From Clostridiales bacterium (GTDB taxonomy: Bacteria; Bacillota; Clostridia; Oscillospirales; CAG-272), in assembly GCA_021202555.1 (NCBI GenBank), contig JAJQCT010000038.1:18383-82382 (forward strand): a stretch of DNA of 64,000 nucleotides. Reading direction: 5' to 3'. The notes under the pieces are model-generated. The model saw nothing but the letters and a program-made list of their open reading frames with translations. It searched no databases and was not told the DNA's origin. This document shows positions 18,046 to 50,190 of this stretch, piece by piece. Positions within the stretch are counted from its first letter, which is position 1. Each line of letters begins with the position of its first letter. Made by a program: the position numbers and the translations under genes.

Positions 18046-18957
18046 TTATTCCTCATCGAATTTTATTGTTTCCGCAATTCCGTCATAACCGCAGACGGTT
18101 GGCGGGAAGATTGACCTTGCCTCGGAGAGGTAATGCATGGGGTCGGGCATCGAGGGGCTGTAATGCGTGAGCCAGAAGCGGCGCGGATTCGCGCGCGCAG
18201 CAAGCTCCGCCGCCTCGGAGAATGTCATGTGCTTTGATTTGATGGCACGTGACATTTTTTCGTCGTCGCCGTACATTCCCTCGCAGATGAAAATGTCGGC
18301 GTCGTTTGCCATTTCCGCGATTATCGGCACGGGGCGTGTGTCCGTACAGTATACCGCCGTGATTCCGCGCCTCGGCGCGCCCATGACAAGGCTTTGCGTG
18401 TAGCTTACCCCGTCAAGCTCCGCCGAGCCTGTTTTCTGAAGCTTGCTCCAGACGGCGAGCGGAACACCGTTTGCACGGGCGAGCTCGGGGTCAAATCTGC
18501 CCGCGCGCGGAATGTGAATTTTATAGCCGTAGCACGCGACCGTGTGGTTCACGCGGAACGCGGTTATTTCAAAACCGTCGATTTTTACCGTATCCGTTTT
18601 GCCGAATATGGGGTGATATTTTATCTCGAAGGGAAGCTCGGGCGCGATAATCAAAAGGGATTTCACGTATTTTTCAATATACGAGGGACCTATTATCGTG
18701 ACGGGTTCGGTGCGACCCTCTCCGCCGAGCGAGAGCAGAAGACCCGGAAGTCCTCCTATATGGTCGGCGTGAAAATGCGTTATGCAGATGATTCCTATCG
18801 GTTTGAAGGGGAGCGACGCTTTTTTCATCGCAATCTGCGTTCCCTCTCCGCAGTCTATAAGGACGCATTTTCCCTCGTATCTCATGTGACACGAGGTCAG
18901 CCATCTGTTTTTTAGCGGAATCGTACCGCCGCAGCCCGAAAGTGTGATATCGAACAT
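18046..18957 (-). CDS. rnz: ribonuclease Z / MBL-fold hydrolase
   Basis: Metallo-beta-lactamase motif THFHADHIGG. The N-terminus MFDITLSGCGG at 18957 is preferred over the track start at 19026. Confidence 0.75.
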   Translation of the reverse strand: MFDITLSGCGGTIPLKNRWLTSCHMRYEGKCVLIDCGEGTQIAMKKASLPFKPIGIICITHFHADHIGGLPGLLLSLGGEGRTEPVTIIGPSYIEKYVKSLLIIAPELPFEIKYHPIFGKTDTVKIDGFEITAFRVNHTVACYGYKIHIPRAGRFDPELARANGVPLAVWSKLQKTGSAELDGVSYTQSLVMGAPRRGITAVYCTDTRPVPIIAEMANDADIFICEGMYGDDEKMSRAIKSKHMTFSEAAELAARANPRRFWLTHYSPSMPDPMHYLSEARSIFPPTVCGYDGIAETIKFDEE

Positions 18958-36845: not shown

Positions 36846-36936
36846 TCGTGCAGCGTACCCGTGAATATTGCGCTGCGCGCAATATTCACCAACTTGAAAG
36901 ACAAGGCATAGCCTTGTCTTTCAATGTTATATAATT
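36846..36936 (+). repeat. two-hairpin intergenic repeat element, copy A
   Basis: GTGAATATTGCGC tgc GCGCAATATTCAC (36861-36889), then TTGAAAGACAAGGC ata GCCTTGTCTTTCAA (36894-36924). The architecture and flanks recur at 44918-45019. Confidence 0.85.
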
Positions 36937-44917: not shown

Positions 44918-45044
44918 ATCATAAATTGAGCACTGTACCGTGAATATTGCGCTATGCGCAATATTCATCAGACTTGAAGAACAAAGCATAGCTTTGTTCT
45001 TCAATGTCATATTATATCATATTGAGCGCAGAACCGCAAATATT
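44918..45044 (+). repeat. two-hairpin repeat element, copy B (full unit plus a second 5' module)
   Basis: Hairpin 1 at 44940-44968, hairpin 2 at 44974-45004. The 5' module ATCATA(A)ATTGAGC..ACCG..AATATT occurs at 44918 and again at 45016. Confidence 0.85.
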
Positions 45045-45147: not shown

Positions 45148-45176
45148 TTGACTATATATTCCAAACGATGTATAAT
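45148..45176 (+). promoter_or_regulatory. sigma-A type promoter of the HTH/helical-repeat regulator
   Basis: TTGACT (45148-45153), 17-nt spacer, TATAAT (45171-45176). Confidence 0.6.
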
Positions 45177-45250
45177 GATGACACAATATAATCATGACAG
45201 CGGACTGTGATTCACGGTATGGAGCATTATTATGTGCGGGAGATTTAATT

Positions 45251-46165
45251 ATGACAAAATGCGAAATCGGAAAAATAATAAAAAATCGGCGTGTTGAGCT
45301 GGGAATAAAGCAAAGTGAGCTTTGCTGCGGCATCTGCGATGAATCCGTTCTTTCGAGAATTGAAGCGGGAAGAAACTCCGGCAGCTACGAAATAAGAGCC
45401 CAGCTTATCGAGCGTCTCGGAATGTCAAGCGCAATTCTCGGCGAGCAAATTGACGAAAAGAATTACCTTGTGCGTCAGAAAATTCGTGAAGCAAATCTTG
45501 TATACTGCGATAACAAGCTGACGGAAGCGCTTGAAATGCTGAATGCGCTCAAAGCCGATTACGACAATTTTTCGACCGCAAACAAGCAGCGCTTTTGCAC
45601 TCTTTACACGCTTGTCTCGTATGATAACGGGGACATTTCAGATGAAGAGAGACTCTCTTCTTTTGAAGAGAGCCTCAAAATGACAGTTCCAAACTACAGT
45701 CTCGAAAATCTGCCGCCTTTAATGTCTAAAGCGGAACTCTACACTCTCGGACGTATTGCAACTACATACATTGTGTTCGATGAACACAAAAAAGCCGCCG
45801 GAATTTTGAGTCATACGAAAAAATTCGTCGAGGACTACTATGATGACAAATTGGCGGCGGCGGATTCACTGTCTTTAACGTGTTATAATCTTTCGCTGTG
45901 CCTCGGTCAGCTTAAGCAATACGATGAATGCATCGAGGTTGCACGACAGGGCATCGAATACAGTAGAAAAGCAGAAGACATGGCGGATTTTGCATGGTGT
46001 ATGTATAACTGTGCGTGGTCGCTTCTTTATCGGGGAGACCCGAGAGACAGATCGGAAGCCAAGAAACTGCTCGACAGCGCGGAACCAATAAGCTTAATCA
46101 AGGAAATAGACACAGAAAATTTGTCGAATTTAATCAAAGGTCTGCGTAAGAAATTTTCCCTCTAA
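45251..46165 (+). CDS. XRE-type HTH regulator with C-terminal TPR-like helical-repeat domain (Rgg/RNPP-like architecture)
   Basis: N-terminal HTH IGKIIKNRRVELGIKQSELCCGICDESVLSRIEAGR, then ~240 aa of predicted helical repeats. ATG 45251 has GGGAG upstream. The track start at 45194 lies too close to the promoter. Confidence 0.65.
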   Translation: MTKCEIGKIIKNRRVELGIKQSELCCGICDESVLSRIEAGRNSGSYEIRAQLIERLGMSSAILGEQIDEKNYLVRQKIREANLVYCDNKLTEALEMLNALKADYDNFSTANKQRFCTLYTLVSYDNGDISDEERLSSFEESLKMTVPNYSLENLPPLMSKAELYTLGRIATTYIVFDEHKKAAGILSHTKKFVEDYYDDKLAAADSLSLTCYNLSLCLGQLKQYDECIEVARQGIEYSRKAEDMADFAWCMYNCAWSLLYRGDPRDRSEAKKLLDSAEPISLIKEIDTENLSNLIKGLRKKFSL

Positions 46166-46496
46166 AGCTCCGTTTTCTTTTTGTCACGCTCGTCACCATC
46201 ACAGTCAGGTCTGCATTCACCGCCGCCTTCATTGCTGTTGTCATCTTCATCAACGGTGATGTCGTCTGCTGTTTCAATTTCATCATCCGTCATATCAGAG
46301 GAAATTGCAAGCGGCATTACTGTGACCGAAACAACAATTGCTGACGCACTTGCACTTGCGCCAAGTGCAAGCGGAGATATTGACAGCTAAAAATTCATGC
46401 TGTATAATAAATATACATAAATATTTTTGCATTCATGCTTTAGAAATATGAAAATGAGACACTGATAATTTTATATAATATTCGGAGGATATGGTC

Positions 46497-47672
46497 ATGA
46501 GAAAAGTTCGTATGCTCGGCATTTCACTGGCGCTTATGCTTTTGCTTGACGCGATGCTTTTCACGTCATGCAGTGAAGGCGTTCCATCGGACGGCATGGT
46601 TTCTGCGGACTATGAACCTAAGGCTCTTATCGGCAGAATGATGATACCTTATGTCTACGGCGAATATCTTTTCTGTTCCGCGTCCGATTCGGGCGATATA
46701 GTATATCAGCTTCTTGACGATGTACAGGATGTCGCGCTGAATATATATACGGATCCGCTTGCGACGGGAGACGACAACCCGTTCGGATATGCCACATACA
46801 GCTTTTATCTCGTAGACGAGGAGGCGACGATTGCAAACGGAGGCAGTCCCGTTCTTTTGTTTGCGCACAAAAATTTGCGCTCGGCAGATTGCTGCTATAA
46901 TATTTTCTCCTATGACCTTGCCACGAATGAGATAACCATGATAAAAGAGGGAATAAACGAGAACATACAGTCCCTTTGCCTTTACGGGGATTACATAATC
47001 TATACGACTAACGAGGGAGACAACGGGTATAACATTCACCGCGTAATGAAGGACGGCACGGGATATTTGAAGCTTGACAATCCCGACTGCGAAACTTACA
47101 GGGTCGCGGACGTTTACGGCGATCGAGTGTATTTTTGCGACGGTGCGTATCAAATTTATTCAATGTCGCTTGATTTTGACGACGTTCAATATGTGCTGAC
47201 CTATGCAGGTTTGGCTGACGTTTTTGTCCGCGACGGCTATATTTATTATCCTCAGTATGTTGAGACGGTTGTATATACGGATGAGGAAACGGGTAAGGAG
47301 AGCTATTACCCGTCGTGTAATTTGTGCCGGTCGCCCGTTGATGACCCTGAAGTGAGCGAGATTCTGATAAACAATTTCTATGTCGGAATGAGCAGCGAGA
47401 CAACGCTTTATTATTTCGCCGTGGATCCGAGCGACAGCTCGGTTTTAAGCAGCACGCTTTATTCATATTCGCTCAATACGGGGGATATAGGCGTGGTTTA
47501 CGACGATTTGCCGTCGAACGTGTATAGATCCATCGATTTCGCGGGCGACGAATATATTGTGTTTTCCGATGTGTACATGAATGAGAGCGGTGCATACGGC
47601 ACCGCAACGTATACCGCACTGAATTTGGCGACGGGCGAGGAATTTACCGTTTCAAACAAAACAGCGAATTAG
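46497..47672 (+). CDS. lipoprotein paralog 1, six-blade beta-propeller-like (DUF5050-like)
   Basis: GGAGGA lies 7 nt before ATG 46497. Lipobox LFTSC. A recurring strand motif appears about six times (YGEYLFC, YGDYIIYT, YGDRVYFC, DGYIYYP, DEYIVFS). Confidence 0.7.
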   Translation: MRKVRMLGISLALMLLLDAMLFTSCSEGVPSDGMVSADYEPKALIGRMMIPYVYGEYLFCSASDSGDIVYQLLDDVQDVALNIYTDPLATGDDNPFGYATYSFYLVDEEATIANGGSPVLLFAHKNLRSADCCYNIFSYDLATNEITMIKEGINENIQSLCLYGDYIIYTTNEGDNGYNIHRVMKDGTGYLKLDNPDCETYRVADVYGDRVYFCDGAYQIYSMSLDFDDVQYVLTYAGLADVFVRDGYIYYPQYVETVVYTDEETGKESYYPSCNLCRSPVDDPEVSEILINNFYVGMSSETTLYYFAVDPSDSSVLSSTLYSYSLNTGDIGVVYDDLPSNVYRSIDFAGDEYIVFSDVYMNESGAYGTATYTALNLATGEEFTVSNKTAN

Positions 47673-47704
47673 TTTTGACGCATGATGAAAGGAGTAAAAA
47701 AGTT

Positions 47705-48973
47705 ATGAAAAAACACATTTTGAAGATTGTCGCGCTTGCGCTTGGAGCGGCACAGCTTTTACTGCTTTGCGCCTGCACGGGCGGGGATGAGAACAACGAA
47801 ACCGACAAGGGCGGCGAGAGCGTCGGCGTGACGGAAACCGGAACGGAAACGGCGGAGGAAACGACGGATTATCTCTCCATGCTGCCCGAAAATCCTGAGA
47901 TTCTATTTGACGGGGAAGGCGACGACACCGCTTGTCTTAAAGCGGGTCAACAGTATATCTACGGCGACTATATCTTTTATTACGATACGGACACATACAC
48001 CATAGATTATCGTTTCATCTCGTCACTTGATACTGAAGCCGTCACCGTTCCGCTTAATGGCGGGGAAAGCATATATAATCTGCTTTTCCTTGTTGATGAG
48101 GAGACGTCAGAGGAATACGGAACACCCGTGATTATCGCAAAATACAGCGTGACGGGCGAGGACGGAACGTATTATAAAATCGTTTCGATTGACCTTGCAT
48201 CCGGCACTGAATCTGTTATACTTGACAGCCTTACATATGCATATATCGAGTACCTTTATCTTTACGGCGACGACATCTTTTTTACATCATGCGACGAATA
48301 TCTCGACAACAGCCGCCTTCACCATGTGACGACGGCGGGTGACAACTACGCTGTGCTTGAACCGCCCGAAGAAGAGACAGGCTCGTACTTTGTCGAGACA
48401 GTATATGACGGACGGATTTATTACGGAATCGGTAACAATAGATATCGTCAGGTTTATTCGGCAACGCCAGAGTTTGAAGATACGGAATATGTTTTCGGCG
48501 CAAATCCCATGAACGAAAGCAATGTAACCGTCCAAAACGGATATATCATATATCCGAAAAACGGCTCTGAAATATATTTTTACGCTGACGACACGGAAGA
48601 AGCGGTAGTATATACTCTATATTATTCAGGAGAGCTTGTATGCAGCCCGCTCGATGACACGTCAACGGTATATACGCTTGCTTACGGAGTATATTCCTTT
48701 TACTGCGGCGGGGACTATATTTTTTACACGAGAACGACACCGCGGAATGCAACATCTCTACTTGCTGATTCGGGAACAAACGTAATGTATGCGTATTCGC
48801 AAAAAACGGGGATAACGACCGAGATTTATAATCTGGGCGACGCAGAGTACGTAAGATATGTGAGGATGATAACGGATAAATATATTTTGTTTGAGGATTG
48901 GTACAGCATAGAAAAATCCGATTATATTCTCTATGATATTGAAACAGGCGAGGAAACGGAAATACCGTACTGA
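47705..48973 (+). CDS. lipoprotein paralog 2, six-blade beta-propeller-like (DUF5050-like)
   Basis: AAAGGAG before ATG 47705. Lipobox LLCAC, an acidic linker, and motifs YGDYIFYY, YGDDIFFT, YDGRIYYG, NGYIIYP, GGDYIFYT, DKYILFE. The protein ends TGEETEIPY. Confidence 0.7.
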   Translation: MKKHILKIVALALGAAQLLLLCACTGGDENNETDKGGESVGVTETGTETAEETTDYLSMLPENPEILFDGEGDDTACLKAGQQYIYGDYIFYYDTDTYTIDYRFISSLDTEAVTVPLNGGESIYNLLFLVDEETSEEYGTPVIIAKYSVTGEDGTYYKIVSIDLASGTESVILDSLTYAYIEYLYLYGDDIFFTSCDEYLDNSRLHHVTTAGDNYAVLEPPEEETGSYFVETVYDGRIYYGIGNNRYRQVYSATPEFEDTEYVFGANPMNESNVTVQNGYIIYPKNGSEIYFYADDTEEAVVYTLYYSGELVCSPLDDTSTVYTLAYGVYSFYCGGDYIFYTRTTPRNATSLLADSGTNVMYAYSQKTGITTEIYNLGDAEYVRYVRMITDKYILFEDWYSIEKSDYILYDIETGEETEIPY

Positions 48974-49010
48974 CGATTTGCGCTATTTTATATCTGCGGA
49001 GGACGAATAA

Positions 49011-50141
49011 ATGAAAAAAATCGTATCTTTATTTTTGGCTATGCTGCTTGCGGTTGTCGCACCATGTGCGTTTTCTTCCTGTGAAAACGACGCTGACATA
49101 TCAGAGGCGATATATATAGATACATCGTCAAGACAGCCGTGTGTATACGATGATTATGTGTTTTATTTTGACACCGATACTCAAGAGGTGAATTATCAGA
49201 TTGTAACGAATGTTCAGCAGACGGGAATTTCAATAATTACCGACCCGCTGTCGGAGGGAGAGGATAACCCGCTGAATCAGATGCTTGTTTACTATTTTCT
49301 CGTTGACATTATCTCTTCCGACAAGAACGGACATTCGCCTGTTTTGCTGCTCGGGTGCATGGACTACAGCGATCCTTATGCGGAATCGGATTATAAGGTT
49401 ATTTCATATGATCTTGCGACAAATTCGCTCACTGTTCTTGCAAGCGGACTGTATAGTCCATTTCAGTCGTTTGCGGTATACGGCGAATATGTAATATTCA
49501 CAACACAGGACGGAGACGAGGGGTACAACGTACACTGTGTGAAAACTGACGGGACTGAATATGTTACGCTTGATAATCCCGAATGCAGCCTTTATCGCGT
49601 AAGATATGCATATGAGGATAAAATTTATTTTACCGATGCCGCATATCGGCTTTATTCCGCGCCATTTGACCTTTCCGAAAAGGAATATTTGTGCGATTTG
49701 CCCGCGTCATATGTTTCGCCGTTTATAAAGGACGATTACCTGATATTCTGCGGGGAATCCGAAAATATTCCCTTGGAGCTTGAGGATTCCGAAATGGAGT
49801 ATACATTGATTTCCGCCGACCTTTGCCGCCTACCGCTTTCCGATTTATCGGGAGATGCGGAGACGCTTGTTTCGGGCGTGAACGTCGGCAGATGCTACCG
49901 CGACAAATTTTACTATTACATCGCGGAAAACAGGGAAGGGACATATTATCTCAACACAGATACGCTTCATGTTTATTCGTTTGACACGATGACATCGGAG
50001 GTCGTATGGGAAAAGGACGGCGTCGGATATTACGCGGCGTTCTCCGACGAGTACATCATATACGAGGACACATACCCCGGTACAGCCTGCTATATTGCTT
50101 ACAATATAAATACAGGCGAGGAAACTGAAATACCGTACTGA
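49011..50141 (+). CDS. lipoprotein paralog 3, six-blade beta-propeller-like (DUF5050-like)
   Basis: Lipobox AFSSC. Motifs YDDYVFYF, YGEYVIFT, YEDKIYFT, KDDYLIFC, YRDKFYYY, SDEYIIYE. The protein ends TGEETEIPY. Confidence 0.7.
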   Translation: MKKIVSLFLAMLLAVVAPCAFSSCENDADISEAIYIDTSSRQPCVYDDYVFYFDTDTQEVNYQIVTNVQQTGISIITDPLSEGEDNPLNQMLVYYFLVDIISSDKNGHSPVLLLGCMDYSDPYAESDYKVISYDLATNSLTVLASGLYSPFQSFAVYGEYVIFTTQDGDEGYNVHCVKTDGTEYVTLDNPECSLYRVRYAYEDKIYFTDAAYRLYSAPFDLSEKEYLCDLPASYVSPFIKDDYLIFCGESENIPLELEDSEMEYTLISADLCRLPLSDLSGDAETLVSGVNVGRCYRDKFYYYIAENREGTYYLNTDTLHVYSFDTMTSEVVWEKDGVGYYAAFSDEYIIYEDTYPGTACYIAYNINTGEETEIPY

Positions 50142-50155
50142 CAAAAAATATCATG

Positions 50156-50190
50156 AAAAGCACGCCACCGACGCGGCGTGTTTTTTCTTT
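50156..50190 (+). terminator. rho-independent terminator of the lipoprotein operon
   Basis: CACGCC accgacgc GGCGTG stem preceded by AAAAG and followed by TTTTTTCTTTT. Confidence 0.75.

Follow-up and report, generated by a model that had tools for sequence, protein, structure and literature searches.

We describe a cassette of about 5 kb (45148-50190) in the 64-kb window analysed here, which is positions 18,383 to 82,382 of contig JAJQCT010000038.1 from a Clostridiales bacterium (assembly GCA_021202555.1). The cassette lies between pepD and ispD and contains four plus-strand genes, one encoding a regulator and three (lipA, lipB and lipC) encoding lipoproteins. We consider it fairly likely that this insertion is a degenerate member of an apparently undescribed, PlcR-like subfamily of RRNPP systems in uncultured Oscillospiraceae, and that its receptor would control lipABC through an imported peptide. 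The evidence for this interpretation includes the predicted fold of the regulator, a convergent candidate propeptide gene that is intact in relatives and truncated in the window, a perfect palindrome next to the promoter of the lipoprotein operon, and the purifying selection that still acts on the regulator.

To our knowledge, the RRNPP systems, which are the main peptide quorum-sensing systems of the Firmicutes, are known almost wholly from Bacilli and a few cultured clostridia, and the RRNPP surveys that we searched do not mention Oscillospiraceae or Ruminococcaceae. The family described here would add a coherent group of about 240 clusters (E ≤ 1e-30) from uncultured Oscillospiraceae, with a propeptide motif, subfamily-specific predicted operators and identifiable cargo that includes bacteriocin-like small proteins with ABC/FtsX transporters, secreted C39/C70-like peptidases and DUF5050 lipoproteins. 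It also offers testable receptor/peptide/operator triplets, a natural case of a receptor whose own peptide gene was lost through a defined deletion, and, for the DUF5050 proteins, what would be a first entry to their regulation. The gain for the window is more modest, namely a known kind of regulator that would control uncharacterised lipoproteins.

Loci from other genomes are numbered L001 to L042. L027, L029, L030, L031 and L032 are close relatives of the window locus, and the distant comparison set consists of 26 loci from metagenome-assembled genomes of Oscillospiraceae, whose regulators are 26-44% identical to that of the window. The Pfam gathering cut-offs are 26.5 bits for RNPP_C and 27 bits for DUF5050. 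Structures were predicted with AlphaFold2 for the regulator and for LipC, the sole lipoprotein modelled, and the folds were compared with the PDB using Foldseek. The features of the cassette are collected in Table 1.

Table 1. Features of the cassette, with positions in the window
Feature	Position	Strand	Remarks
Predicted regulator promoter	45148..45176	+	TTGACT-17-TATAAT; 11/12 consensus; sequence kept in L027, L031 and L032
Regulator, predicted RRNPP-type (PlcR-like) receptor/transcription factor	45251..46165	+	304 aa; XRE helix-turn-helix, linker helix, five TPR-like helix pairs
Propeptide remnant, 5'-truncated	46162..46346	-	convergent with the regulator gene; overlaps its stop codon by 4 nt
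Candidate operator	46349..46371		CTTGCACTTG-CGC-CAAGTGCAAG; perfect 10-3-10 palindrome, 8 nt upstream of the -35
Predicted lipoprotein-operon promoter	46380..46408	+	TTGACA-17-TATAAT; 12/12 consensus; operator-adjacent position kept across the family
lipA, DUF5050 lipoprotein	46497..47672	+	391 aa; GGAGG 8 nt upstream; lipobox LFTSC, Cys25; DUF5050 28.6 bits
lipB, divergent paralog	47705..48973	+	422 aa; lipobox LLCAC, Cys24; acidic Gly/Thr/Glu-rich linker
lipC, DUF5050 lipoprotein	49011..50141	+	376 aa; lipobox AFSSC, Cys24; DUF5050 32.0 bits; most conserved of the array
Predicted intrinsic terminator	50155..50186	+	12-pair stem, then TTTTTTCTTTT

Regulator

An initial annotation of this DNA, made from the sequence alone, had read the first gene of the cassette as an XRE-type helix-turn-helix (HTH) protein of about 304 aa with C-terminal repeats of the tetratricopeptide repeat (TPR) type, and had recognized in it the architecture of the Rgg/RNPP peptide-sensing regulators. 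Both readings are supported by the data below, the length and domain order by the structural model and the lengths of the homologs, and the family by the placement of PlcR as the best match. The open reading frame (ORF) could also begin at 45194; the start at 45251 was chosen because the homologs are likewise 304 aa long.

Against Pfam, the regulator matches RNPP_C with E=6.9e-5 and 22.9 bits, and its matches to TPR and HTH_3 (13.3 bits) are weak. At the level of the family, RNPP_C is matched by 10 of 21 members and HTH_3 by 13 of 21. When the family profile was compared with PDB sequences, PlcR was the best match (E=9e-9, in two stretches), followed by PrgX, Rgg2 and ComR; residues 1-79 of the regulator are aligned to PlcR and residues 5-59 to PrgX. 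The AlphaFold2 model (predicted local distance difference test, pLDDT, 91.2; predicted template modelling score 0.86) contains five short N-terminal helices (residues 3-63, the HTH), a linker helix and five helix pairs (residues 90-302). Foldseek places PlcR (3u3w, 2qfc), ComR and Rgg2 at the top over about 300 aligned columns, with full-length matches to PlcR, ComR, Rgg2 and Rap at E values between 1e-7 and 6e-4. An N-terminal XRE-type HTH is thus seen in both the model and the profile alignment, and a C-terminal TPR-like superhelical domain of the peptide-binding type in both the model and the Foldseek comparison. By profile as well as by predicted fold, the regulator is of the RRNPP type with PlcR as its nearest relative.

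The regulator ORF is unbroken in all five close relatives. The ratio of nonsynonymous to synonymous substitution rates (dN/dS) is 0.15-0.33 overall and 0.148 between the window and L032, values that indicate purifying selection. An exhaustive profile search collected 241 representative clusters of the regulator family at E ≤ 1e-30 and 2175 at E ≤ 1e-10, while the 64-kb window contains no second copy of the regulator. No copy of the operator palindrome described below is found near the regulator promoter, and none occurs elsewhere in the 64-kb window. The regulator promoter is therefore probably constitutive. Autoregulation through the same operator box is not supported, since the window has no further copy of that box.

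Many proteins matched by the regulator profile (P0057, P0059, P0064 and others) are about 600-650 aa long and contain two matched stretches. From their sequences they look like tandem-fused double HTH-TPR receptors.

Candidate propeptide gene and its remnant

RRNPP systems are defined by an HTH-TPR receptor and an adjacent gene for a small secreted peptide (PMC10075063). In the close relatives, the regulator stop codon is overlapped by a gene call of 78-80 aa on the minus strand. The propeptides of L027 and L030, which read MNKNFSVRLFSALAAILTASAIAVSVTVMPLAIFS followed by DMTDDEIE...E(C/Y)RPDCDGDPR..., carry a signal peptide, then an acidic linker and, towards the C-terminus, a conserved core. 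In 17 of the 26 distant loci, the regulator 3' end is likewise overlapped by a small convergent ORF that encodes a signal peptide and measures 52-87 aa as listed and 52-79 aa from the start codons of alignment A4. The core of these distant propeptides is (E/K)P(D/E)C-x-P-(N/D)-C-(D/E), mostly with a D(D/E)Y terminus. An adjacent gene for a secreted propeptide is hence present at 17 distant loci and in L027 and L030, and as a remnant only in the window. Since the intact ORFs have dN/dS values of 0.15-0.37 at dS of 0.5-1.2, they are real coding genes, and searches of the propeptides against Pfam and NCBIfam returned no meaningful match. Taken by its position and sequence, the convergent ORF of 52-80 aa fits a cognate propeptide.

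The remnant in the window translates as ...SVTVMPLAISSDMTDDEIE...GECRPDCDGDERDKKKTEL up to its stop codon and is homologous to the intact genes (79-80 aa) of L027 and L030. Alignment A5 shows a stretch of approximately 155 nt in L027 and L030 that is absent from the window, L032 and L029. This deletion took the first ~17 codons of the peptide gene, which encode the signal peptide, together with the GGAGG ribosome-binding site and the promoter, and its junction directly abuts the palindrome. A fortuitous upstream frame in the window begins at ATG 46400 and is interrupted at its fourth codon by TAG at 46391-46389 (MNF, stop, LSISP...); the corresponding frame is frameshifted in L031 and L032. 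The first usable start codon of the remnant is the ATG at 46317, from which a product without a signal peptide would be made.

Candidate operator and divergent promoters

Beyond the peptide gene, the intact loci share one order of elements: a minus-strand promoter, a palindrome or direct repeat, and a plus-strand cargo promoter. The minus-strand promoter, T(G/A)GACA-17-TAnnnT, points into the peptide gene, and the repeat follows 8-10 nt further. The plus-strand promoter, TTGACA-17-TAnnnT, begins ~2-9 nt past the repeat and points into the cargo genes. The repeats themselves are specific to subfamilies and include CGTTGCG-N5-CGCAACG, ATTGTGAGTA-T-TACTCACAAT, AATTTGCATATCATGCAAATT present twice, and direct repeats of CTTGCACGATYGGAAAGTT. 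In the window, the 10-nt arms of the candidate operator are 100% complementary, and the palindrome occurs a single time in the 64 kb, where chance would give 0. L027 carries it too, at the same position (GCTTGCACTTGCGGCAAGTGCAAGC), with the -35 hexamers of both promoters 8 bp away, one on each side. The initial annotation had missed the minus-strand propeptide remnant and the palindrome within the spacer of 330 bp between the regulator gene and lipA.

Distant systems have a conserved leader of ~65 nt between the cargo promoter and the ribosome-binding site (L004:3262-3345, L006:11308-11391, L008:11283-11366, L011:2643-2726, with equivalents in L012, L014, L016, L018, L020, L021, L022 and L024), all outside the window. 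The leader has the form ...ACAGNC...CGAGACTTTCYGC...TTAGCGGRAWGGGTCG...GCTGAA, and the structure predicted by RNAalifold has 21 pairs, with compensatory changes at 6. The leader could be an undescribed cis-regulatory RNA. Rfam searches at gathering thresholds over the window and 11 loci gave no family for the 5' untranslated region of the window operon or for the paralogous leader. The 5' untranslated region of lipA (46393-46445) contains a direct repeat, ATTCATGCTGTATAA / ATTCATGCTTTAGAA, by which the -10 region recurs 38 nt downstream; close to it are two AT-rich palindromes (46413-46432 and 46467-46482).

Proposed model and alternatives

In the intact module, as seen in relatives, the receptor gene on the plus strand is met by a convergent propeptide gene, whose 52-80 codons run into the receptor 3' end and specify a Sec-type signal peptide, an acidic pro-region and a conserved Cys core. 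One operator between divergent promoters would serve both, the propeptide promoter providing feedback and the other driving variable cargo that is secreted or at the surface. The window has kept the receptor, the candidate operator and the cargo promoter and has lost the propeptide promoter, the ribosome-binding site and the signal-peptide codons. A receptor dimer would bind the palindrome and, on import of a peptide, set how far the lipoprotein operon is transcribed; the peptide would now have to come from a paralogous locus or from a neighbouring cell, making the receptor an orphan that eavesdrops. The lipoproteins would be binding modules with paralog-specific ligands, anchored to the membrane on its outer face. 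Given that purifying selection still acts on the regulator, an orphan receptor is the probable reading. In the genome GCA_965297575.1, an intact paralogous system (L030) is present alongside a truncated one (L032), which fits an orphan receptor served by another locus. As to the sign of regulation, activation is favoured by the analogy with PlcR and ComR and by the feedback layout of the shared operator.

A more specific proposal can be made with less assurance, and we put it forward tentatively, as possible rather than probable. It holds that the undescribed subfamily is characterized by an antisense-overlapping precursor, by a Cys-x-Pro-x-Cys core that may be disulfide-cyclised or otherwise modified, and by one operator for both promoters, and that its pheromone-less receptors persist as eavesdroppers over strain-variable surface propeller lipoproteins.

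Several observations weigh against these interpretations. The RNPP_C score of the window regulator is below the Pfam gathering cut-off, and no intact paralogous system that might supply the peptide is present within the 64-kb window. About eight of the distant loci have no convergent peptide ORF, most of them belonging to a subfamily with regulators of 312 aa (L009, L013, L015, L017, L019, L025). Either Cys of the propeptide motif is replaced by Tyr in some members, and a disulfide is therefore not obligatory. The remnant has stayed open over ~55 codons in three lineages, with dN/dS of 0.32-0.73, and in L029 it possesses an ATG and a signal-peptide-like extension; it may for these reasons retain a residual function. 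Finally, the operator is centred at about -55 of the cargo promoter, which is not the classical class II activator position, and a promoter that matches the consensus at 12/12 positions may not need an activator. The sign of regulation is accordingly not fixed by the layout, and the consensus cargo promoter leaves repression plausible as well.

If the sign were the opposite, the same parts would make the regulator a repressor, seated between the divergent promoters, whose action the peptide relieves, and the lipoprotein operon of the window would stay off until a foreign peptide arrives. Repressing members of the RRNPP family, PrgX and Rgg3, set a precedent, and PrgX is among the matches of the PDB profile. 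Moreover, the cargo promoters have a perfect TTGACA -35, joined in the window by a perfect -10, which is unusual for activator-dependent promoters. However, PlcR and ComR, the nearest relatives in sequence and structure, are activators, and the operator lies upstream of both -35 hexamers without overlapping them, a poor position for steric repression, so that we regard this arrangement as unlikely. The strength of the cargo promoter, a match at 12 of 12 positions, would also suit a decaying module, in which the regulator became irrelevant with the loss of the peptide gene, lipABC is constitutive, and the cassette amounts to a lipoprotein operon beside a relic regulator. Decay would agree with the damage to the peptide gene, which comprises the 155-bp deletion, a nonsense codon and a frameshift, and also with the frameshift of lipC in L029 and the varying make-up of the array among strains. 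Such decay seems improbable, though, given that the regulator ORF has remained unbroken in five relatives at dN/dS of 0.15-0.33, even between the peptide-less window locus and L032 (0.148), and that the palindrome is still perfect.

The small convergent ORF might alternatively encode a co-regulated secreted acidic protein or act as an antisense element, with the HTH-TPR protein sensing something else or nothing. At 52-80 aa it exceeds most known RRNPP propeptides, its strong acidity and the Cys residues in its core are unlike classical Phr, PapR and SHP, it matches nothing in Pfam or NCBIfam, and its 3' overlap with the regulator gene would permit antisense effects. We nevertheless judge this distinctly improbable, because an HTH-TPR receptor next to a small ORF with a signal peptide is what defines RRNPP systems (PMC10075063), because the ORF co-varies with the receptor subfamilies and is under purifying selection, and because its promoter shares an operator with the cargo promoter, as is typical of autoinduction.

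Comparison with known systems

The PlcR/PapR system of the Bacillus cereus group resembles the proposed module in its parts. The receptor has ~290-300 aa, with an XRE HTH, a linker helix and five TPR-like repeats, a palindromic box lies upstream of the target promoters, the propeptide is encoded beside the receptor, and the regulon is made up of exported proteins. Nevertheless, papR is downstream of its receptor gene and co-directional with it, whereas the propeptide gene described here is convergent and overlaps the receptor 3' end. The present propeptides are also distinct in being acidic, 52-80 aa long and built on an EPDCxPNC core, two divergent promoters share one operator, the receptor is only ~20% identical to PlcR, and the peptide gene of the window is truncated. 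The streptococcal Rgg/SHP and ComR/XIP systems are neighbours in HTH-TPR fold that similarly have a receptor-controlled small peptide gene and adjacent targets. Their precursors, in contrast, are hydrophobic, ~17-25 aa long and devoid of a Sec signal peptide, and the gene orientation and operator position differ.

Orphan RRNPP receptors that use the peptide of another locus are exemplified by RapB with PhrC in Bacillus subtilis (PMC9765709). RapB is kept without a propeptide gene of its own, as the coexistence of L030 and L032 would suggest for the present receptors; Rap proteins are, however, phosphatases or anti-activators without an HTH, and in our case the cross-talk is inferred. In solventogenic Clostridium, QsrR and QssR are RRNPP-type regulators with adjacent small peptide ORFs and several paralogs per genome (PMC7376267, PMC7206700). 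They share with the present family the HTH-TPR architecture, the adjacent peptide ORFs, the multiplicity of paralogs and the class Clostridia. On the other hand, their peptide genes are downstream and co-directional and they control solvent formation and sporulation.

For the cargo, the closest known structure is 3S25, which is EUBREC_1955 of Eubacterium rectale, from the DUF5050 family (PF16472). LipA and LipC pass the threshold of the hidden Markov model (HMM) of this family, and the LipC model is nearest to 3S25. The window proteins differ from it in that they are lipoproteins, 376-422 aa long, and have additional strands at the N-terminus as well as acidic linkers, and LipB is below the HMM threshold.

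Genomic context of the cassette

The initial annotation had viewed the cassette as a self-contained accessory unit between pepD and ispD with its own consensus promoters and a strong terminator, richer in A/T than its flanks. The present analysis bears this out. In L040, L041 and L042, whose PepD proteins are 71%, 58% and 54% identical to that of the window, pepD and ispD are directly adjacent and divergent, with spacers of 95-316 bp. Since the two genes adjoin in three relatives, the cassette is, by this comparison, an accessory insertion. One of the genomes with an empty site has lipoprotein homologs at other sites. The G+C fraction of the cassette is 0.446, against 0.501 for the 64-kb window and 0.511/0.492 for the 10-kb flanks. 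Site occupancy was judged from genomes that encode PepD homologs. Scanning metagenomes with PepD was uninformative, as nothing but relatives of 31-38% identity was recovered.

The region also contains an intergenic double-hairpin repeat that resembles repetitive extragenic palindromes. It is present in the window at 36859-36925 and 44938-45010, the former between convergent genes and the latter in the spacer between pepD and the regulator gene, at the left edge of the cassette. Two tandem copies are found at L031:7560-7830 and one at L027:7690-7760, and the contig of L030 ends within a copy. The repeat has the form CCGTGAATATTGCGC-N3-GCGCAATATTCA, then TTGAAG...CTTCAATGT, with compensatory changes in the second hairpin.

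Lipoprotein operon

The three tandem genes downstream of the regulator are separated by 32-37 nt, and each is preceded by a GGAGG or AGGAG ribosome-binding site. Their lipoboxes, LFTS-C25, LLCA-C24 and AFSS-C24, had already been pointed out in the initial annotation; they follow n-regions containing K/R and hydrophobic h-regions, as expected of lipoproteins, and the Cys is invariant across 16 homologs. LipA and LipC are 33-36% identical (E ~1e-62), LipA and LipB 30% (~1e-24), and LipB and LipC 31% (~1e-27). The same annotation suggested DUF5050-like propellers with about six strand motifs in each protein, and this holds in part. LipA and LipC score above the DUF5050 cut-off, LipB has no Pfam match, and 7 of the 16 members of the lipoprotein subfamily match the HMM. 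In its strict form, (G/D)(D/E)x(I/V/L)(Y/F)(Y/F), the motif is present just once in LipA, three times in LipB and once in LipC; relaxed to an acidic/Gly pair followed by a hydrophobic-aromatic strand, it is found 4, 8 and 6 times, in the same order, compared with ~0.7-1.0 in shuffled sequences. The LipC model (pLDDT 83.6) is all-beta, and its best Foldseek match is 3S25, a 7-bladed beta-propeller-like structure (E=4.5e-9; template modelling scores 0.49/0.59); the next matches are the LRP6 YWTD propellers and TolB. The profile of the lipoproteins, searched against PDB sequences, gave noise only (for example, a colicin M immunity protein at E=0.39). From the paralogy, the HMM matches and the model, all three are DUF5050-type lipoproteins, with LipC predicted to be propeller-like.

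The lipoprotein subfamily comprised 13 proteins in a word-index search. Among orthologs, dN/dS is 0.11 for lipA (against L032), 0.17 for lipB and 0.08-0.11 for lipC, and LipC is 96-98% identical in L027, L029 and L032. The composition of the array varies among strains: the window and L032 have the order A-B-C, L027 has a gene for a 165-aa protein, a different paralog (42-45% identical) and lipC, and L029 has the same paralog as L027 with a frameshifted lipC. A search of the literature on DUF5050 found essentially no characterisation, and the variable surface or ligand-capture role proposed for these lipoproteins is a guess.

Cargo of related loci

The initial annotation implied a conserved linkage between the regulator and the lipoproteins. 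This linkage is seen in the close relatives with the same insertion (L027, L029 and L032) and only there. By tblastn, none of the 26 distant regulator loci has a homolog of lipA, lipB or lipC, and the regulator is found at none of three loci with lipoprotein homologs in other genomes. The idea that the linkage extends beyond the close clade was thus rejected on the tblastn result. Instead, the sampled distant loci carry small Cys-rich secreted proteins with FtsX-type permeases and ABC ATPases, secreted C39/C70-like peptidases, a secreted protein containing fn3 and other lipoproteins. Because the cargo differs in this way, the conserved unit seems to be the receptor, propeptide, operator and promoters; among the loci sampled, the cargo is interchangeable and, as predicted from sequence, always exported.

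In L001:1568-7347, L004:3341-6186, L012:11358-14910, L016 and L022, the module is located upstream of genes for a small Cys-rich secreted protein of 63-117 aa, for an ABC ATPase and for one or two FtsX-type permeases (800-890 aa). Such cargo resembles a bacteriocin under quorum control together with a unit for its export or for immunity. Modules with secreted papain-like peptidases (Peptidase_C39_2 / C70) are found at L006:11811-12404, L008:11436-12353 and L024:11366-12556, and these enzymes are candidates for propeptide processing.

Outside the clade of the window, DUF5050-like lipoproteins occur in repeated pairs with a secreted protein of ~160 aa (L036:369-6529, L034:7392-9215, L035:3-5586). 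These pairs are followed by a polytopic membrane protein of 779 aa and an ABC ATPase, without an adjacent RRNPP regulator. Homologs of these genes, whether for the ~160-aa partner, the 779-aa membrane protein or its ABC ATPase, are absent from the window. L027 keeps one partner gene of 165 aa (L027:9568-10065), which is preceded by a long conserved leader.

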